From Amoeboaphelidium occidentale (Eukaryota): DNA of 64,000 nt. A model generated the notes under the pieces. The model saw nothing but the letters and a program-made list of their open reading frames with translations. It did no database searches and had not been told where the DNA came from. Below are positions 34,905 to 50,368 of this stretch, in pieces. The position numbers and the translations under genes are program-made. Position 1 is the first letter of the stretch. Every line of letters begins with the position of its first letter. Location: the NCBI GenBank assembly GCA_023515795.1, contig JALGPX010000014.1:186001-250000 (forward strand), read 5' to 3'.

Positions 34905-36227
34905 TTATTGCTCTCTTCGATGAACGAATACTTCAGCCAAAGCTTGTAAGTCTTTTGTTTCATTTGATAGTTCATCACAAACACGTATGCCCTCAATTTT
35001 ATGACATCCTGGAGCAGATGGAAAGAATTTCAATTGAACCCGCCGGGACTCCTCTGGTCTAAGTTCTCCCAAAGGCGTATTTGCTTCATCCAAGAACCAT
35101 ATAGTTCCCATTTTCTCCTTCTGTGATATGAGTTTTAAGTTTGCATTCTGCCTGCTCAGATTTTTTACGTCAAAAGTCAGAACGAATGGAACTTCAACCA
35201 CAATGTTTTTAGGACAATCGATGATTTTGATGTCAACTAGTTCAGAAGGAGCTGCTTTCCTTACCAGCTGGTTTGTCTGTAGCCTTCCGATTTCACCCAA
35301 GTTTGATCGCCAAAGTATGTCCAAACGACCTAGATTTGTCGAAGCGATTGCATTAATGGTTGACTGGTCACTTCTCGGTCGTAGTCTAAATAGATACTGT
35401 CGTGTATCTTGCGGCTGCATTGAAACAAAATCCCCAAATACAGACACAGAATCTGCGCCATAATGATTCAAATCTTCGCAAGCAAAGTATTCTGACGGTT
35501 CTAACTTGAGCCTTTCGATAAACATTGGGATTGCCATTTGATTTTGTATTTGTGCCTCAAGATACAAATGACCCGTGCCAACTGAATTGACTTTCGTTCT
35601 GACCGCTAACGGATTCAAAACGTTGAACTTGTAAAATCGTCTAAAAGATCGTTTTTCTTCACCAGAAGAAACATAATTAATTGAGCACACTAATATATGA
35701 GTTCCCAGTTCCCGTATCTCGTGGTTGACCATAAATTCAGCTGTTTGGTTCGCAAGTAACCCATGATGAGATTCTTCTGTAGTGTCATGCAACAGGAATT
35801 TTTGGGTGGTAGTCTGCAGCTCCGCCCTAAAATAGAGGTTCCGCACTCCTGAAGCAGAGTCATTATTTATGCAAATGTAAGCAGAGAACGTTTCACCAAG
35901 GTAAATATTTCCAAAACTGCTCGGTAACAATAACAGATCGCTAAGCGAGAATGTAGACACTTCCAGATCTTCATGCTCTGGTCCTTTGCTTGCCGGTAAA
36001 TCTGAAATGTCCAAGAGGGCGGGTGTGTTTACAGAAGATTTCTTTGTAGACGGTGCTGCTGTAAAATTCGACAGGTTCTTGTCTCGCAGCTTTGCAAAAC
36101 CATCATCCCCTAGAGATAAAGAAGTTCCGGAAACGTCATGAAATATCGCATTTGATGATGCAAAGTTCGGTTTAGAAAGCCTCATGACTTTTAACGACAG
36201 TTGATGCTGTTGGCTATCCGACGACAT
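34905..36227 (-). CDS. TRAPPC13: TRAPP subunit TRAPPC13 (DUF974)
   Basis: LSLKVMRLSKP, LLLP.SFGNIYLGETFS.YI and LGRLDI.WR.N.GE.GRLQT. Confidence 0.92.
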   Translation of the reverse strand: MSSDSQQHQLSLKVMRLSKPNFASSNAIFHDVSGTSLSLGDDGFAKLRDKNLSNFTAAPSTKKSSVNTPALLDISDLPASKGPEHEDLEVSTFSLSDLLLLPSSFGNIYLGETFSAYICINNDSASGVRNLYFRAELQTTTQKFLLHDTTEESHHGLLANQTAEFMVNHEIRELGTHILVCSINYVSSGEEKRSFRRFYKFNVLNPLAVRTKVNSVGTGHLYLEAQIQNQMAIPMFIERLKLEPSEYFACEDLNHYGADSVSVFGDFVSMQPQDTRQYLFRLRPRSDQSTINAIASTNLGRLDILWRSNLGEIGRLQTNQLVRKAAPSELVDIKIIDCPKNIVVEVPFVLTFDVKNLSRQNANLKLISQKEKMGTIWFLDEANTPLGELRPEESRRVQLKFFPSAPGCHKIEGIRVCDELSNETKDLQALAEVFVHRREQ

Positions 36228-36252
36228 TTTTCGGTTACAAGAAAATCTATTG

Positions 36253-36304
36253 TGAATAGAAAAAGCTGCGTCTTTTTATACAGCGGTCATAGATTTTTTG
36301 ACTC
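36253..36304 (-). ncRNA. Candidate Fanzor omegaRNA 3' scaffold
   Basis: Lies between the Fanzor stop and the element end. Hairpins GTCA-loop-TGAC and GCTGY..GCAGC; stems are retained in the allele at 37011-37061 while the loop differs. Confidence 0.5.
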
Positions 36305-36545
36305 AAATTTGCCTACTGAAACTGGGGTGTCTTTCTCCTGTTAAAAAGTAATGAACTGCGATAATAGCCATGTTAATTGCTGCTGATACATCCTTGTGAA
36401 CAATCAGATCGTGTCCAATTGAAGTCTTGCAATCTTTACATTTCCACATCCTAGTTCCTTCGTAGCCGTATTTGTCAAGAGGGTTAAAGCACATTGGGCA
36501 ATTCTAAGAAGTCCAAAATCTCTGAGCAACGACGGGCTAAGTATA
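36303..36545 (-). pseudogene. Fanzor (eukaryotic TnpB) C-terminal remnant: RuvC-II tail, Zn finger, RuvC-III
   Basis: LARRC/(frameshift)FWTS*NCPMC...RMWKCKDC...HKDVSAAINMAII...G.RHPSF matches the TnpB/Fanzor pattern TS..C..C...C..C...RD.NAA.N. In-frame TAG at 36504-36506. Confidence 0.85.
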
Positions 36546-36862
36546 TATATCACTCAATGATTAAACCCTCGTAACATTAACAACTCAGTTCTATTGTCTG
36601 TGAAGTTTTAATCCATCTCTGTGTGCATGTATCACTATCTTGAAGCACCACAACTTAAACAGCAGCAACAACAATGTTCTCCATGATTGCTATGCTCCGT
36701 TCAGGGTGCTGGCTGACTTGTATGAGTTTCTTGTGATCTCTCCTATAGTTGTTCTTCGGGTTCTCATTTTTGAGTGCTGCTGATAGCTTGATTCATGTAG
36801 CAAGCGAAATTTGATTCTTCTGACAGTTATAGTTCGCATGACCAGAATTCTATTCAGTCATN

Positions 36863-37262
36863 ATCCCCTAGAGATAAAGAAGTTCCGGAAACGTCATGAA
36901 ATATCGCATTTGATGATGCAAAGTTCGGTTTAGAAAGCCTCATGACTTTTAACGAGAGTTGATGCTGTTGGCTATCCGACGACATTTTTCGGTTACAAGA
37001 AAATCTATTGTGAATAGAAAAGGCTGCGTCTTTTTATGCAGCGGTCACATTTTTTTGACTCAGACTTGCCTACTGAAACTGGGGTGTCTTTCTCCTGTTA
37101 AAAAGTAATGAACTGCGATAATAGCCATGTTAATTGCTGCTGATAGCTTGATTCATGTAGCAAGCGAAATTTGATTCTTCTGACAGTTATAGTTCGCATG
37201 ACCAGAATTCTATTCAGTCATTCAGTAATTTTATCTCTGCGGATTGGTATTTATACTGGAAA
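36863..37262 (-). mobile_element. Alternate haplotype: duplicate of 36105-36252 plus internally deleted element allele (37011-37262)
   Basis: Same flank as copy A; junction at TGCTGCTGATA removes 397 nt; bounded by Ns at 36862 and 37263. Confidence 0.85.
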
Positions 37263-37263
37263 N

Positions 37264-37660
37264 TTAAACCCTCATAACATTAACAACTCAGTGCTATTGT
37301 CTACGAGATTTTAATCCATCTCTGTGTGATTAGATCACTATCTTGAAGCACCACAACTTAAACAGCAGCAACAACAATGTTCTCAATGATTGCTATGCTC
37401 CGTTCAGAGTGCTGACTTGTGTGAGTATCCTGTGGTCTCTTCTATAGTTGTTCTCCGGGTTCTCCAATTAATCTGCTGCTGATAACTTGATTCTTGAAAC
37501 AAGCGAAATTTGACTCTTCTGACAGTTATAGTTCGCATGACCGGAATTCTATTCAACCATTCAGAAATTTATCTGTGCAAGTTGGTATTCTTACTGGAAA
37601 TAAAAATTCTGTTTTGCCTTGACCGACCGGTCCAGGTTTCGACTAAGTGTTTGGGTGACC
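37264..37660 (-). mobile_element. Diverged paralogous copy of the same element (5' part), different insertion site
   Basis: Aligns by eye with 36561-36861 and 39596-39787 with many substitutions. Ends at GGGTGACC, then has a different flank (MTMR 3' end). Confidence 0.85.
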
Positions 37661-37694
37661 AAAAATTTTCTATTGGACATCAACCAAAGCTTTG

Positions 37695-39549
37695 CTAAAC
37701 TTTCCGCAGAAGCATATTACGCTTGGCAAGAAGATCATCGCGTTCTTGTAACGCTCTGGCAATATTCTCATCCAAGTTCCCAGAAGTCTTATCATTATTT
37801 GCTCCATTATTGTTTGTTATGCATGTTCCAAATGCACTCTTATCCCATGCACAATACATGCTATCCCACAAAAGAATGTCTTTAGGGCTAACAGAGGGTC
37901 TTAAGACATGCTGCCCTGAAGGAGAATACAAACCGCTTGTATAAATAGAAATGTTGTCGTGGACATGATTCCAAACAGATAAAGTTTTCGTTTTAAGTTG
38001 AAGTTCTAGCCGTTCTCTTTCGCAATTACCAAGAAATGTTCCAAACTGGCAATTCTGAGAGTACTTGTGCAGATCCAACAGAAGCCTTTCATTATACTCA
38101 AACTCACCAGGAAACTGCAACATTAAATTCCGAGTAGACTCTAAAAATTGAAGGAATACTGGAGAAGTTTCTTTTTCTTCCTTAGATCCCGATTTATGTG
38201 AGTGTTGCGCAGCTGAAGAAGAAGTCTTTGGCTTCATTGTCCGAACGTGTCCGCATCTTTCAGAGAATTTGTGGCCAAACGAAAGCCATTCTTTTTCTAT
38301 AAGAATCTGAAACCCCTTGAGAGTTCTGTAAAATGGATCCAAACATATAGATGCTAAACCACTTAATTGAGCTGTTCTATCCCAACCATCGGAACAGTGA
38401 ATCAAAACATTCTGTCCATTCTCAATTGCTTTCACTATAAGCAATGCAGACTCCATAATATTCCGTATATGTTTAAGCCATCCAGATGAATCTATTCCAG
38501 AGTATAAACGATCCACGCCAGTATCTGGCTGAGAACACACTAAAAGTTAACGTAAACGAAGTTTTGAAATAACCTTCAACCAACTTGTTCAAAGAGTCTC
38601 TCATAACATGAATATTATCTATACCCATAAATAATCTGTCGCAATTTCTATAGTTTTCCAAACTCTCTGTCCCAGCACCCATCGCCCTGTTGGCCATGGC
38701 GTTAGAAACTGGGCGAGCGTCGATAATAAAATTGTGATGATTATCTGAGGAATCATGGTTAGACTCAAATATAGATTCAATAAGTTTCTCATCCTGAATA
38801 CTTCGCTTTGATTTGATACCGACGAGAGGCTGACTAGACCTTGTTATTGATGCACCTGTTTGCCTGTGTAAATATGAAAGTGCCGGCAGACGACCTCTAG
38901 ACCGGAACTTTGCAGCATGATAAAGCACAGCATCACTGATTTTTGTAGGAACAACCAGAATACGAGGATACGTAGGACATAAATTATAGCCAGCATTAAC
39001 ATCAGAGATTCTCCACGCAGATCCATTATCTGAACCAACACCCATCCTTTCGAACTCTGCAAAAGGATCATACAACTCCCAACCGTTAAACTCTGCCGTA
39101 GAATTCGTCTTGGATACATGTCGAAATGAAAATGCATAAGAATTTGTAAGACTGGCGCCCTGATGGTCCAAAGCACGGCTGATCGTCTCGTAAACGGCTT
39201 GAGCATCGGCAGCAGAGGATACCAATAATCGGAAGAACGTAAAATCTCTGCAATTAAGAACAATAGAATAATACGATAAGGAATTGGAGTTGTCTGTAAT
39301 AACATTCGCAGCAACAGAATTTCTTTTGAGACTTGCCACATTCGAGTAAGGAACCCAAATTTCGTAAGGCAATCCTTCCGCATTAGCCACATACCGAATT
39401 ATAAGATCGTTAACAGTCAAGTGTAAAGAAGCTTTGTGATCGTTGGCGGCATTGATCACAGTCTTGCCATTAGACGCTGCCCCATTCGAAGGCGCCTGAA
39501 TATTCCACGTATTCGGTCGCCAGTTGAGCAAGACATCCTCCACCTTCAA
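37695..39549 (-). CDS. YMR1: Myotubularin PI3P phosphatase (Ymr1/MTMR); first exon lost at the gap
   Basis: HCSDGWDRT catalytic motif, FRSRGRLPALSY, IDARP..NA.AN and NIHVMR.SL; intron 38540-38573. Confidence 0.93.
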
Positions 39550-39595
39550 AAGTTAGGCCGATACTTTCGTGAATGAAGTCGAACTTTTGAAATTN

Positions 39596-39787
39596 GCTGA
39601 TAGCTTGATTCATGTAGCAAGCGAAATTTGATTCTTCTGACAGTTATAGTTCGCATGACCAGAATTCTATTCAGTCATTCAGTAATTTTATCTCTGCGGA
39701 TTGGTATTTATACTGGAAATAAAAATTGATTTTAGCCCTTACCAACCGGTGACCGGTCCAGGTTTCGACTAAGCGTTTAGGGTGACC
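39596..39787 (-). mobile_element. 5' end of element copy A/B, with ACCGGTGACCGGT palindrome and terminal GGTGACC
   Basis: Identical overlap with 36779-36861 and 37139-37262; followed by the repeat of the left flank. Confidence 0.85.
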
Positions 39788-39817
39788 AAGAAAATCTATT
39801 GCGGTTTGAAAGAAACA

Positions 39818-40830
39818 TCATTGACCAACTTCAGTAGTTTCATCCCTCATGAGCATGTTTACTAATCTTTCAATAGCTTCTATGCAGTTTTCGTCCGTTT
39901 CGCTGAGGTGCAACTCTCTTATGATAGGATAAACCTTCTTCTTTCTCATGTATTCTCTACCTTCGCGTGTCATTGTAAGCAAGATCAGGATATCGACCAA
40001 ATCATTTCTGATTTTTGGTGATACTTCTCTAGTCTTATCAGACTCCAGGAACTGCAGCTCGTCAGGCATTCCATCCATGTCTTCAGCTGATAGATCTTCC
40101 GGCCCAGCTAGAGGCAGTAATACATGCACAAGCAAAGGAATCCTCTCATTAATGATTTCGATGTGCTTTTCTGTAGCTAACATGCAATTCTTTATCACGC
40201 TAACAACTCCAAAGCGCCTTATTGGTGACGAACTTTTCATATCGACAAGCAATAAACCAATAGGATAATCGAACTTCTCCGACATAAAGAACTCTCTTGC
40301 TTTCAGGCTATTTAGCGTAAGATTGCTAAACACGTTTGCCAAGTAATCAAACGAAGCCTTCTCGTTCAGTGTCTTGGGGCTGATAAAAGCCGAGATGATT
40401 TGGATTAGGAGCATGCCACTATCTGCTAATAAGATGCATACTTCAGGCGAAGACGTGATGTTGCTGAGAAGAATGCACGCTTCATCTGCAAACGGAGACT
40501 TGGGCATCAAGATCATAGAGCAAATAATGTCCAGCAAGCCAATATCCACAAAATCTTTCAGTTGTTCTACGGTAAGCAGTGCAGTTGCGTTAATGAGAGC
40601 CTTGATGGCTCCTTGCCCAATATCATTTCTAGCACACGCCTTTCTCAAGGCTGCAAGCATGTCGCGGTCATTCACAATGATGTTTGCGAATTCTGCTGAT
40701 TTGGATACGCCAACAATGCAGTCAATGGAGCCCTTACGAACCTAATCATTACTTTGCGCGAAAAGTAACGACATACCTCAGGCTTTGGATCATCTAAAAG
40801 ATCGAGTAGTTCAATCAAAGCTTCCTTCAT
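39818..40830 (-). CDS. HGH1: eEF2 chaperone Hgh1/FAM203 (ARM repeats)
   Basis: DYLANVFSNL, RR.GV.S.IKNC, LLPLAGPE, LQFL..DK.RE and R.KKVYPIIRELH; intron at about 40742-40776. Confidence 0.92.
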
Positions 40831-40853
40831 CTATTGCAGGAAAAAATGAATTT

Positions 40854-42896
40854 CTATTGACCTTTAACTCTACCTTGATTATCATTCACGGCATTAGATG
40901 GTGCATCACTGACAGTGTCTGCCTTTTCATTCATGTCTCCATTGTTCTTGTTTCTCATTAAAGACTGTGATCCTCTTTCCATAGTCCCTTCGCTATCTTG
41001 TTCCAAACGCTTGAGGGCAGCCTCACGCTCCATTTGGATGTCTTTGGTTTTCTTATTGTAGACTTCCAACAAATCGGAAAGTATACTTCGAAGCTTATCA
41101 AGATCTTCCTTTTCTTCTGGTTGCTGATTTGCAACCATCTTATCGCTGGCTTTCATCAACTGTCTGTGTAGTGATGATAAATATCTCTCAATATCTACAT
41201 CCTTCTTCTCTTTTTTATCGGGTCTCCAGCTGGAAAATATCTTGGAAAACCCTTTTAACCCGCTTTCTTTTTTCTTAGATGCACTTTCAAGGTCAGCATC
41301 TGAAGGTGCAGTAGTGATCTCGTCAATAAACTTTTTCATTCTTCCGATGTTATTCTGTACCAAATGATTCAGCTGAGCCATATAAGGCTCCTTCTTTCCA
41401 TCAAAAGGAGTCATGTTTGCCAACTGCTGGATAGTTTTAGAGATTAACGTTAACGTTCTGGCATTTCTGGGATTTGGAGGTTCTCCGTCATTGGATAGAC
41501 CAAACAACTGAGGGCCTAGACAATAAATAAGCCAAGTGATCATTTACCTAAAATTGCAGCATTGAAAAATCTCAAGAAAACAAAAGCAGTAACAACGGTG
41601 TATGGGACAACTTTGTCTGTTGGAAACTTTTCTGATGCTTCCTTTCGCAAAACTGAGAAGACCTTCTTTAATGGAGCTGGACATTTCGAGGCAGAATTAA
41701 GGATTCTATCCATTGCCCATTTGATGTAAGCTTCCAAAACAGTGAAATTTTCCTCAACACTATCAGTCTTTTCTAATCTCGTTGGGTCCAATTCACAAGG
41801 CCTATTCTGAACCAGAATTTCTGTGATAAACTGTTGAAGAACCTGTTTCAGATATCCCATACCAACTAATTTCATGTATTGATCTATAGCCTTGCTTCCA
41901 AGAGAATTGTGTCTGAAAATAGTGTTTGCGTCGGCGGTAGCCCTTATTTCACTCGCAGATATTCCACACAAAAATCTAGGAGCCTGACCTGCAAAATGAC
42001 TGATGGTGACCAAATTCTTAGCAACTTCTTCTCTTTCCTCTGTATTTCTACCTAGAGCCTGTGCTACTCTGAACTTTTCATCCAAAATCAGTTCAAGCAA
42101 TTTCGAGTAATTGCTCAACGGCAGAATATACTCCTCGTTATAAAGATACTTGGCTCTGATCACGCCCATTACACCACAATTAGAAGACATCAAAGGAGCG
42201 CATTTCGTGTGACAACAGGCACCACAAGAACATTTCATTCCAGAGTGGTTGATGCCCCACAAAAGATTGCGACAATGATGACAGGTTTGAGGAGTCGTGA
42301 ACAAGAATGGCTGAAACTCGTGGCTTTTATCAGCCTTCTTATCTTCTCCATATTCTTCTGAAGAAGCAGATGCTTGCAGAGTGTACCAGGTTTCATGGTA
42401 CTTACTGTCTTGATCAAGTGCTACTCTCGGAATCACAACCTGACCCATCAATCTATCTTTTATCAATGACTTGACCCACAATTCCACTATATTGATCAAT
42501 TAAACTTTGACCTCATGCAACTTACATACAACTTCTTTGAACTTTTCATTCAGATCAACCTCAAATTCGTCATCAAACCATGGAGTTTTAGATCTTGCAA
42601 CAACCTTGGTTTTCTTAAGAAAAAACGTTTCAGTAGTCTTTTCAGTAGACGATCCCCTATTTCTCCCTAGCGTTGCAGCCTTTTCAGGAGGAGCAAGCAA
42701 GCTGTTCTGTGAGCTTGAAGAATTTCTCCTGGCTGTTCCAGGATCAATATCAGCAATGATCTTTAACACAACATAAGAGTCACATTCTTCATCTCTGTTG
42801 ATGTTCTTTGCCTCCAAGATCTTTATCAATAAACCTTCACTATTAGCCTTTTATCTTGTGAAACTTACGGTGATCTTTCCTCAAAGCCTTGGCCAT
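40854..42896 (-). CDS. C2 + C1 domain RasGAP (GAP1-family-like)
   Basis: C2 (IKILEAKN..P.FDD.F), C1 (H.F...F..P..C.HC..LLWG..GMKC.C..CH.KC), and RasGAP FR.NSL, FLRFF.AAIL.P, RTLTLISK.IQ.LAN; 3 introns. Confidence 0.9.
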
Positions 42897-49674: not shown

Positions 49675-50368
49675 GCCCGATGGACTCTTTTAAGAGGACA
49701 GAGGGTGCGTGGAACTCTGTTCACATTTTTCAGGGGTACGAATGGCGTGATTCTATTGGCTGATTTTGTGATTGGCGTTCAACTTATAGGTTTCGAATAG
49801 ATATCACCTTTCTCATATGAAAAGTATATCTGTTACATCCTTAGATAGATCAATAAGTGACTTCTGCTCTTCATATTAAACAATTATCTTTCGTCTTAGC
49901 GTTTCAAGTAGCGCGGCGTGAAGGACGCAGAAAAAACTGAGCAAAATTTGACGGAGTTTGAGATTATTTACATTTTTAAGTTACTGCTGATATCAAATCG
50001 TCCGTGTTCTCTTCAAGGTATTCACATGCTGAAACAATTTCGTGCATAGTACACTTTTCCATCATCCAACAAAGGAACACCTGATAGAGAACCCTCTTTA
50101 TTTGCTCTCCCCAAATACTTAACTTTCTGTGCACTTTAAGTTTACACTGAATCGTCACCTGATTTTCCAGTCATGATCAGTTAACTCTGATACGCTCGAA
50201 TGGATGATGATCGCTCCGTAACAATCATTAAAAACGTGCTTTAGCAGCTACTACAGGTATGATCATAAGGAAAAATCAATAAGTAGTAGTAAAGCAGGCG
50301 TGCCTGAAGCGTTACATTGAAATCCTTTCAAAGGTTAATGTTGACAGNNNNNNNNNNNNNNNNNNNNN

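Follow-up and report, generated by a model that had tools for sequence, protein, structure and literature searches.

A decayed Fanzor1-like element between HGH1 and TRAPPC13 of Amoeboaphelidium occidentale, flanked by a candidate gene-end hexamer

Fanzors have been listed in both Cryptons and Helitrons (PMC10530073; PMC13565253). The closest described systems are found in the available parts of Bao and Jurka (2013), a paper that predates the knowledge of Fanzor nuclease function (PMC3627910). MCi-2 combines a Fanzor and a partial Crypton recombinase with the absence of terminal inverted repeats (TIRs) and with duplications of ATAATT plus 4-5 nt, while CRe-1/2/3 show 7-19-bp duplications directly after their TTTT target if the 5' end is lost (PMC3627910). 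Non-TIR Fanzor elements with an AT-rich hexamer repeat are, as a kind, known since 2013 (PMC3627910). Fungal Cryptons are bordered by terminal direct repeats of 4-6 bp (Kojima and Jurka, 2011; PMC3212892). As for the nuclease, the Fanzor1 reRNA is described as three-stemmed, with the target site duplication (TSD) as part of the scaffold (PMC10711439), the enzymes cut 14-21 nt past the TAM (PMC10432273), and homing is experimentally supported only for bacterial TnpB/IscB in the available portion of a 2026 review (PMC13565253).

The locus described here lies in a window of 64,000 nucleotides from A. occidentale (contig JALGPX010000014.1, positions 186,001 to 250,000), which we compared with contigs from public metagenome runs, named X1 to X6 below. 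We propose a decayed multi-copy Fanzor1-like element without true TIRs that inserts at a poly(A)-type signal, is served by a Crypton-type mover in trans and left a 9-bp repair scar at one site. As a whole, we consider this reading somewhat favored. Its structural elements are listed in Table 1.

Table 1. Features of the HGH1/TRAPPC13 region (positions within the window).
Feature	Positions	Strand	Remarks
TRAPPC13	34905..36227	-	Pfam; downstream co-oriented host gene
15-bp duplication, right copy	36238..36252	-	Host spacer, ending 10 nt short of the TRAPPC13 ATG; single copy in the X3 empty allele
Core hexamer AATAGA	36246..36251	-	After the element right end; probably poly(A)-type signal of the host; predicted closing partner in the last RNA stem
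HGH1/TRAPPC13 copy, body	36253..36861	-	Internally deleted; ~717 bp including left end; X1 records 1 and 4, single-copy depth
Element right end	36253..36302	-	GAC/GTC stem, GTGACC-type subterminal motif, GCTG..CAGC hairpin, TCTATT; putative omegaRNA scaffold
Fanzor1-like nuclease, C-terminal remnant	36303..36557	-	TS, C4 zinc ribbon, KD motif; stop-broken; PF07282 E 0.012 (below curated cut-off)
Redundant contig between two N joins	36863..37262	-	TRAPPC13 start, third 15-mer, element with 390-bp deletion at 11-bp microhomology
Second independent copy at MTMR 3' end, left part	37264..37674	-	83-88% identical; terminus AATAGA + AAATTTTT + GGTCACC; right end outside the window
Myotubularin-related (MTMR) gene, 3' part	37695..39594	-	Pfam; 34-nt intron 38540-38573; mis-scaffolded, not cargo; X1 record 7, X2 record 15, spliced X4 contig
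HGH1/TRAPPC13 copy, left end	39596..39786	-	GGTCACC twice, ACCGGT palindromes, start of short ORF
15-bp duplication, left copy	39787..39801	-	16 nt after the HGH1 stop; occupies the place of the element's own 14-15 terminal nt in other copies
HGH1 (DUF383/DUF384), last exon	39818..40741	-	Pfam; upstream co-oriented host gene

The gene identities proposed in a preliminary description of this DNA (TRAPPC13, myotubularin-related, HGH1 and RasGAP) hold by Pfam. Its treatment of 36238-39801 as one element has to be abandoned: single-N joins at 36862, 37263 and 39595 link overlapping contigs, the blocks between them overlapping one another by 83-124 identical bases, the TRAPPC13 start is repeated over 288 bp at 97%, and the MTMR block is pasted in. 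This block forms the end of a 17.4-kb X1 and a 14.4-kb X2 contig that continue for 15.4 and 12.4 kb past 39594 into other sequence. MTMR thus belongs to another locus with its own element copy, and its role as cargo or nested target is excluded by the same contigs. An X4 contig shows the MTMR intron spliced out, such contigs giving neither strand nor ends. The earlier reading missed both this misjoin and the nature of the element as a Fanzor remnant. The short version in the redundant contig is either a second allele or an assembly chimera. In run X1, which may be the window's own source and is not independent of it, both flanking contigs (TRAPPC13 and HGH1) and the interior of the element have a depth of 100-105, which fits a single allele of ~717 bp. 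Further N joins with duplicated flanks are present at 1001, 1456 and 50348-50368 (876-1000/1185-1309, 1294-1389/1457-1552 and 50228-50347/50369-50487, respectively); the assembly repeats sequence at scaffold joins. The C at window position 36198 is unsupported, X1, X2 and X4 reading G and X3 reading A at the equivalent place, and is probably a consensus error.

The cargo is recognizable as the C-terminal end of a Fanzor1-like nuclease. Within 36306-36533 the TS, C4 and KD parts of the [TS]-[TS]-x-x-C4 zinc finger-x(5,50)-RD-type motif can be read, with a stop inside. A complete RuvC D-E-D triad in an intact ORF is absent from the internally deleted HGH1/TRAPPC13 copy; longer relatives bear the D and DEYxTS motifs. 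A full HMMER scan yielded 12 relatives, the 10 long ones matching PF07282 at E 0.0013 or better. Two proteins of the same family come from A. occidentale itself: KAI3655706.1 is 79% identical to the remnant over 84 aa, and KAI3657820.1 has a near-identical C-terminus, as judged by eye. Both are partial or fused gene models. KAI3655706.1 is annotated with 375 aa, of which the last ~95 residues correspond to the Fanzor C-terminus and the front does not align with the relatives; judging by this alignment, the model probably results from a fusion across a remnant of the element. With a profile of the relatives, the best solved chain is the P. parasitica (Parasitella) Fanzor1 (E 1e-10), and in the atlas one relative has eukaryotic and giant-virus clusters as its neighbors. 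Viral Fanzor loci, 79 in all, are 20-43% identical and have no DNA in common with the element. Protein searches with C- and N-terminal fragments, which are weak tests, found no full-length member, and a profile search returned four proteins, none of them closer. The N-termini of KAI3658238.1 and KAI3661525.1 we take, by eye, to be XPG/FEN1-like. These two proteins (1219 and 783 aa, respectively) are A. occidentale entries of the Fanzor table in the supplement of Saito et al. (2023), in which the row of KAI3658238.1 adjoins that of KAI3657820.1, the latter labeled neither FZ1 nor FZ2 (PMC10432273). The protein family is therefore already in print as a table row (PMC10432273), where we saw no account of the ends or the target of the element.

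The ends of the element recur in several runs. Their summed contig depth is 10-30 times that of the flanks, which indicates a multi-copy family and is not to be read as a copy number. Scans for further copies with the end pattern gave no match in viral contigs and none in prokaryote genomes; the sole match in metagenome contigs falls inside a bacterial ORF with no other similarity and was rejected as chance. The termini had been described as lacking inverted repeats, which is right insofar as there are no true TIRs, but short inverted matches exist near both ends: a 9-mer located 3-5 nt inside the right end reads, in reverse complement, as the MTMR-type terminus AATAGAAAA, and GGTCAC/GTGACC forms a 6-bp asymmetric subterminal inverted pair. 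Similarly, the double GGTGACC and the palindrome reported for the 5' end are present (39748/39781, and ACCGGT at 39745/39752), but the MTMR-side copy has a single GGTGACC (37654). In X2 and X3 contigs (window 37203 / 39660), the first ~130 nt of the left end are joined to at least 255 nt of unrelated sequence, representing either a 3'-truncated copy or another interior.

At HGH1/TRAPPC13 the copy is bounded by a perfect 15-bp duplication. Besides the two copies in Table 1, a third 15-mer lies at 36996 in the redundant contig; neither strand of the window has any other. Read along the minus strand, the order is HGH1 stop, 16 nt, 15-mer, GTCACC. The repeat had been given with a leading C at both ends; the 15-mer is in place, but the C is not common to other copies, as the left-junction match in three X4 contigs and one X6 contig reaches only through AATAGA and the letter before it is not constant. 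The predicted empty allele with one copy of the repeat is present in a public metagenome contig of run X3. In this contig of 336 nt, window position 36252 is joined to 39817 with 14 letters between, which resemble window 39802-39816 (five runs were compared over the TRAPPC13 side). X3 represents a diverged strain, with 14 differences in 189 nt, and the single repeat copy is called from the joint 36252->39817. The expected spacer of about 41 bp between HGH1 and TRAPPC13 also comes out at 41 bp when reconstructed from the window. The site is filled in run X1, and the X4 contig stops inside TRAPPC13. A decayed Fanzor1-like element has thus truly inserted between HGH1 and TRAPPC13, and the site is polymorphic for it. 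The depth bin holding the HGH1-type junction has single-copy depth in X1 and X2, where no second contig covers the junction, and this junction looks private to one site. X2 and X6 contain a different repeat-like end that finishes with AATAG directly on the TRAPPC13 ATG (window 36228-36237); 62-65 nt beyond this point both contigs end, as would be expected at a repeat. The 41-bp spacer may thus have received two independent insertions, the other one stemming from a diverged relative or a different element.

What the copies share at their junctions is much shorter. As first described, CAATAGA precedes GGTCACC by 7 and 8 nt at the two insertions of the window, and GGTCACC begins 30 nt (HGH1) and 34 nt (MTMR) after the stop of the co-oriented gene. 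Among the matches listed (24 of 109 loose-end rows), left junctions with AATAGA comprise these two, three X4 contigs and one X6 contig, left junctions being detectable only when the alignment passes through the hexamer. The three X4 contigs diverge past AATAGA from the window and from each other (agreement 0.57). The X6 contig has the 14 terminal nt of the MTMR copy and a different flank, of which three letters are seen, and may represent the same locus as one of the X4 junctions. A single X1 contig of 28 kb stops aligning at 37653, short of the left terminus. On the right, AATARR directly follows CAC(A)0-2 in all five junctions readable among the matches listed, loose letters being taken as abutting: AATAGA in the window, X4 and X6 record 25, AATAGG in an X6 consensus row and AATAAA in X2 record 11. 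Two X3 contigs are without the usual right end beyond 37051. Recurrence of the motif at other copies, as anticipated, is therefore observed outside the window.

The same junctions tell which letters belong to the element. Since the 8-nt spacer between AATAGA and GGTCACC at MTMR is repeated letter for letter at the different locus in X6, it is element sequence, and a 7-8-bp TSD is not supported as a family rule. The alternative rule of a 14-15-bp TSD is not supported either, because unrelated loci have the same terminal nucleotides and the MTMR-type spacer begins none of the four readable right flanks outside the window. Mimicry of the whole left end by the target flank was rejected: the TRAPPC13-side flank scores 7, a value reached by 6 of 40 other AATAGA sites and by 16% of random 17-mers. 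Both ends are paired in only one copy and were read singly in the others, and the left hexamer may be either duplicated host DNA or element sequence. TTGTAAC is common to two right flanks at a similar offset, which may be chance. The family signature is the hexamer; the 15-bp duplication is real but seen at one site only.

The hexamer is also a word of the host. Within 60 nt after 40 ORF stops of the window, element sites excluded, AATAGA ranks first of 4096 hexamers (7/40, P=5e-6) and AATAAA fifth (6/40). When overlap with the stop is included, AATAGA is found at 11 and AATARR at 19 of the 40 stops, the antisense word at none. A role mainly as promoter motif was discarded, as AATAGA ranks 49 upstream of ATGs (3/39) vs. 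first downstream of stops. The 40 ORF ends include several intron-cut ORFs, so that the share at true gene ends is likely higher. The suggested poly(A) signal is borne out to the extent that AATAGA behaves as a strand-specific gene-3'-end signal; being the top hexamer after stop codons, it is quite probably the host poly(A) signal itself. Its frequency alone does not account for its fixed position at the junctions. Targeting of gene 3' ends as a safe harbor is plausible, with the gene context known for two junctions only. At the RasGAP gene (40828-40860), AATAGA covers the stop and recurs 18 nt later, its final letter doubling as the first of the likely HGH1 start codon; here the gene-end signal overlaps with the following start.

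Because the readable copy ends have only this six-base word in common and it is the one most enriched after stops, the element likely lands at gene-end signals. Landing would occur at the hexamer in gene orientation, the upstream gene would retain its signal at the left junction, and the second hexamer would close both the element's own transcript and the last omegaRNA stem; this part of the model we regard as probable. At the right end, three stems are predicted, the last of which pairs UCUAUU with the downstream AAUAGA; the z values of -1.1 and -1.8 are not significant alone, and the placeable indels of other copies fall in loops of the predicted fold. This predicted layout corresponds to the one reported for Fanzor1 reRNAs (PMC10711439). 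No folding signal was obtained for 165 nt of 3' sequence (z +0.96). The mover may be Crypton-like and would act on a circle junction in which two inverted arms enclose a short spacer, which we suggest tentatively. The inferred circle junction has arms of 8-9 bp around 3-7 nt, shorter than the 11-13 bp around 6-8 bp of tyrosine recombinase sites (PMC3212892), and the right-end TCTATT is explained equally well as an RNA stem. In the internally deleted copy, no recombinase, RepHel or DDE transposase gene was found for the element.

The longer duplication at HGH1 would need a separate step. After a cut in the empty chromatid on the downstream side of the hexamer, the broken end would have kept 9 nt of the target and primed on the left end of the element at a TTG microhomology, which would have replaced the element's own first nucleotides. 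CRe-1 and MCi-2 display an equivalent geometry (PMC3627910). Such a Fanzor cut-and-copy scar is a serious candidate, falling just short of an even chance; gene conversion from the empty homologue or a shifted crossover would give the same appearance. The guide would begin with the nucleotide next to the hexamer, its first nine bases being the 9 additional ones of the duplication. A TAM located wholly in AATAGA would turn the filled right junction into a self-target, which would count against the model. The full extension of the model, a Fanzor family landing at the host poly(A) signal with a left end that serves as replacement signal, a host signal that completes the last guide stem and sets the guide start, and long duplications on one side as fossils of Fanzor-driven homing in a eukaryote, is in our opinion rather doubtful.

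Three other explanations keep the element and assign a different origin to its borders. The first, unlikely but the best of them, keeps the same element and target and invokes a Helitron2/Helentron RepHel as mover, with the inverted pair and hairpins as rolling-circle signals and a long duplication of the CRe-1 type. The expected layout is there: a hairpin directly follows the 3' GTGACC, the left end (the MTMR type only) forms a 5-bp 5' hairpin over GGTCAC, and Fanzor-Helitron2 elements with 7-19-bp duplications are known (PMC3627910). Yet, the asymmetric inverted pair measures 6 bp vs. 8-15 bp, a purine-rich hexamer stands on both sides vs. an insertion after TTTT without duplication, and no RepHel is seen. 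Somewhat less likely still is a DDE transposase without TIRs, Dada- or MCi-5-like, whose fixed 6-bp TSD would fall on AATAGA/AATARR and make the left hexamer duplicated host DNA. On the present data, a fixed 6-bp TSD is formally equivalent to a recombination core; Dada elements are without TIRs and show fixed TSDs of 6-7 bp together with short subterminal inverted repeats (PMC3706591), and MCi-5 combines a Harbinger transposase with a putative TSD, ATTTAT, and likewise lacks TIRs (PMC3627910). However, the right-junction spacing varies by 0-2 A, the subterminal motifs lie at unequal distances from the ends, no such enzyme is seen, and the target is no multicopy small-RNA gene as in Dada but the 41 bp that separate two protein genes in the empty allele. 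Finally, a true 14-15-bp TSD as family footprint, from a staggered cut such as in target-primed reverse transcription of an element RNA, would suit the perfect 15-bp repeat of the paired copy, single in the empty allele, and the variable A run at the right junction, but is very improbable given the 14 left-terminal nt common to unrelated loci, the four deviating right flanks, the mostly intact left ends and the lack of a poly(A) tail. A non-LTR retroelement or SINE would be expected to have a 3' poly(A) or simple-repeat tail and long TSDs that differ from copy to copy, whereas no more than 0-2 additional A are present here.

Returning to the Crypton-type model, several consequences would follow if it is true. 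A DNA transposon could persist in a gene-dense genome with spacers of ~40 bp via a motif near many gene ends, each insertion leaving the upstream gene with its 3' signal. For a Fanzor family not yet characterized, the model would also predict where the TAM lies and where the guide starts, and the unexplained long duplications of MCi-2 and CRe-1 would become repair scars, a genomic record of Fanzor homing. The evidence base for these expectations is a handful of junctions. Among the literature matches listed, from a search of openly available papers, we found no paper on the element itself or on a DNA transposon aimed at poly(A) signals, nor any mention of the poly(A)-signal link or of the element-borne left terminus.

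The nearest counterparts, as far as the available parts of these papers describe them, are the Fanzor1 elements MCi-2 and MCi-5 of Mucor circinelloides (Bao and Jurka, 2013; PMC3627910), with a 3' Fanzor, no TIRs, an AT-rich hexamer at both ends (ATAATT and ATTTAT, respectively) and an unclassified mover. MCi-2 additionally resembles the present element in that the duplication continues beyond the hexamer, and in its fuzzy 5' ends; it differs in its 11-12-bp duplication in all five complete copies and its partial Crypton recombinase, whereas here the extension is seen once and no mover gene is seen (PMC3627910). In contrast to both, the hexamer described here matches a host gene-end signal (PMC3627910). 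CRe-1/2/3, the Fanzor1-Helitron2 elements of Chlamydomonas reinhardtii, resemble our element in the long duplication directly downstream of the target motif upon loss of the 5' end and in the subterminal inverted motif followed by a 3' hairpin (PMC3627910; PMC10530073). They lack a second TTTT at the right end, and their asymmetric inverted repeats span 8-15 bp, whereas here the motif flanks both ends and the pair spans 6 bp (PMC3627910; PMC10530073); moreover, only ~9 nt of the 5' end are missing here, unlike in CRe-1/2/3 (PMC3627910). Cryptons (PMC3212892) and Starships (PMC11162782) likewise have no TIRs and a short terminal direct repeat of 4-6 bp that reflects the target core. They differ in that no recombinase gene was found here, a Fanzor is carried and the arms are shorter than in typical sites (PMC3212892; PMC11162782). 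With AATAGA at both ends of the one paired copy and the motif at the unpaired ends of the others, a 6-bp terminal direct repeat without TIRs appears, by analogy, to fit Cryptons and the related Starships best (PMC3212892; PMC11162782).
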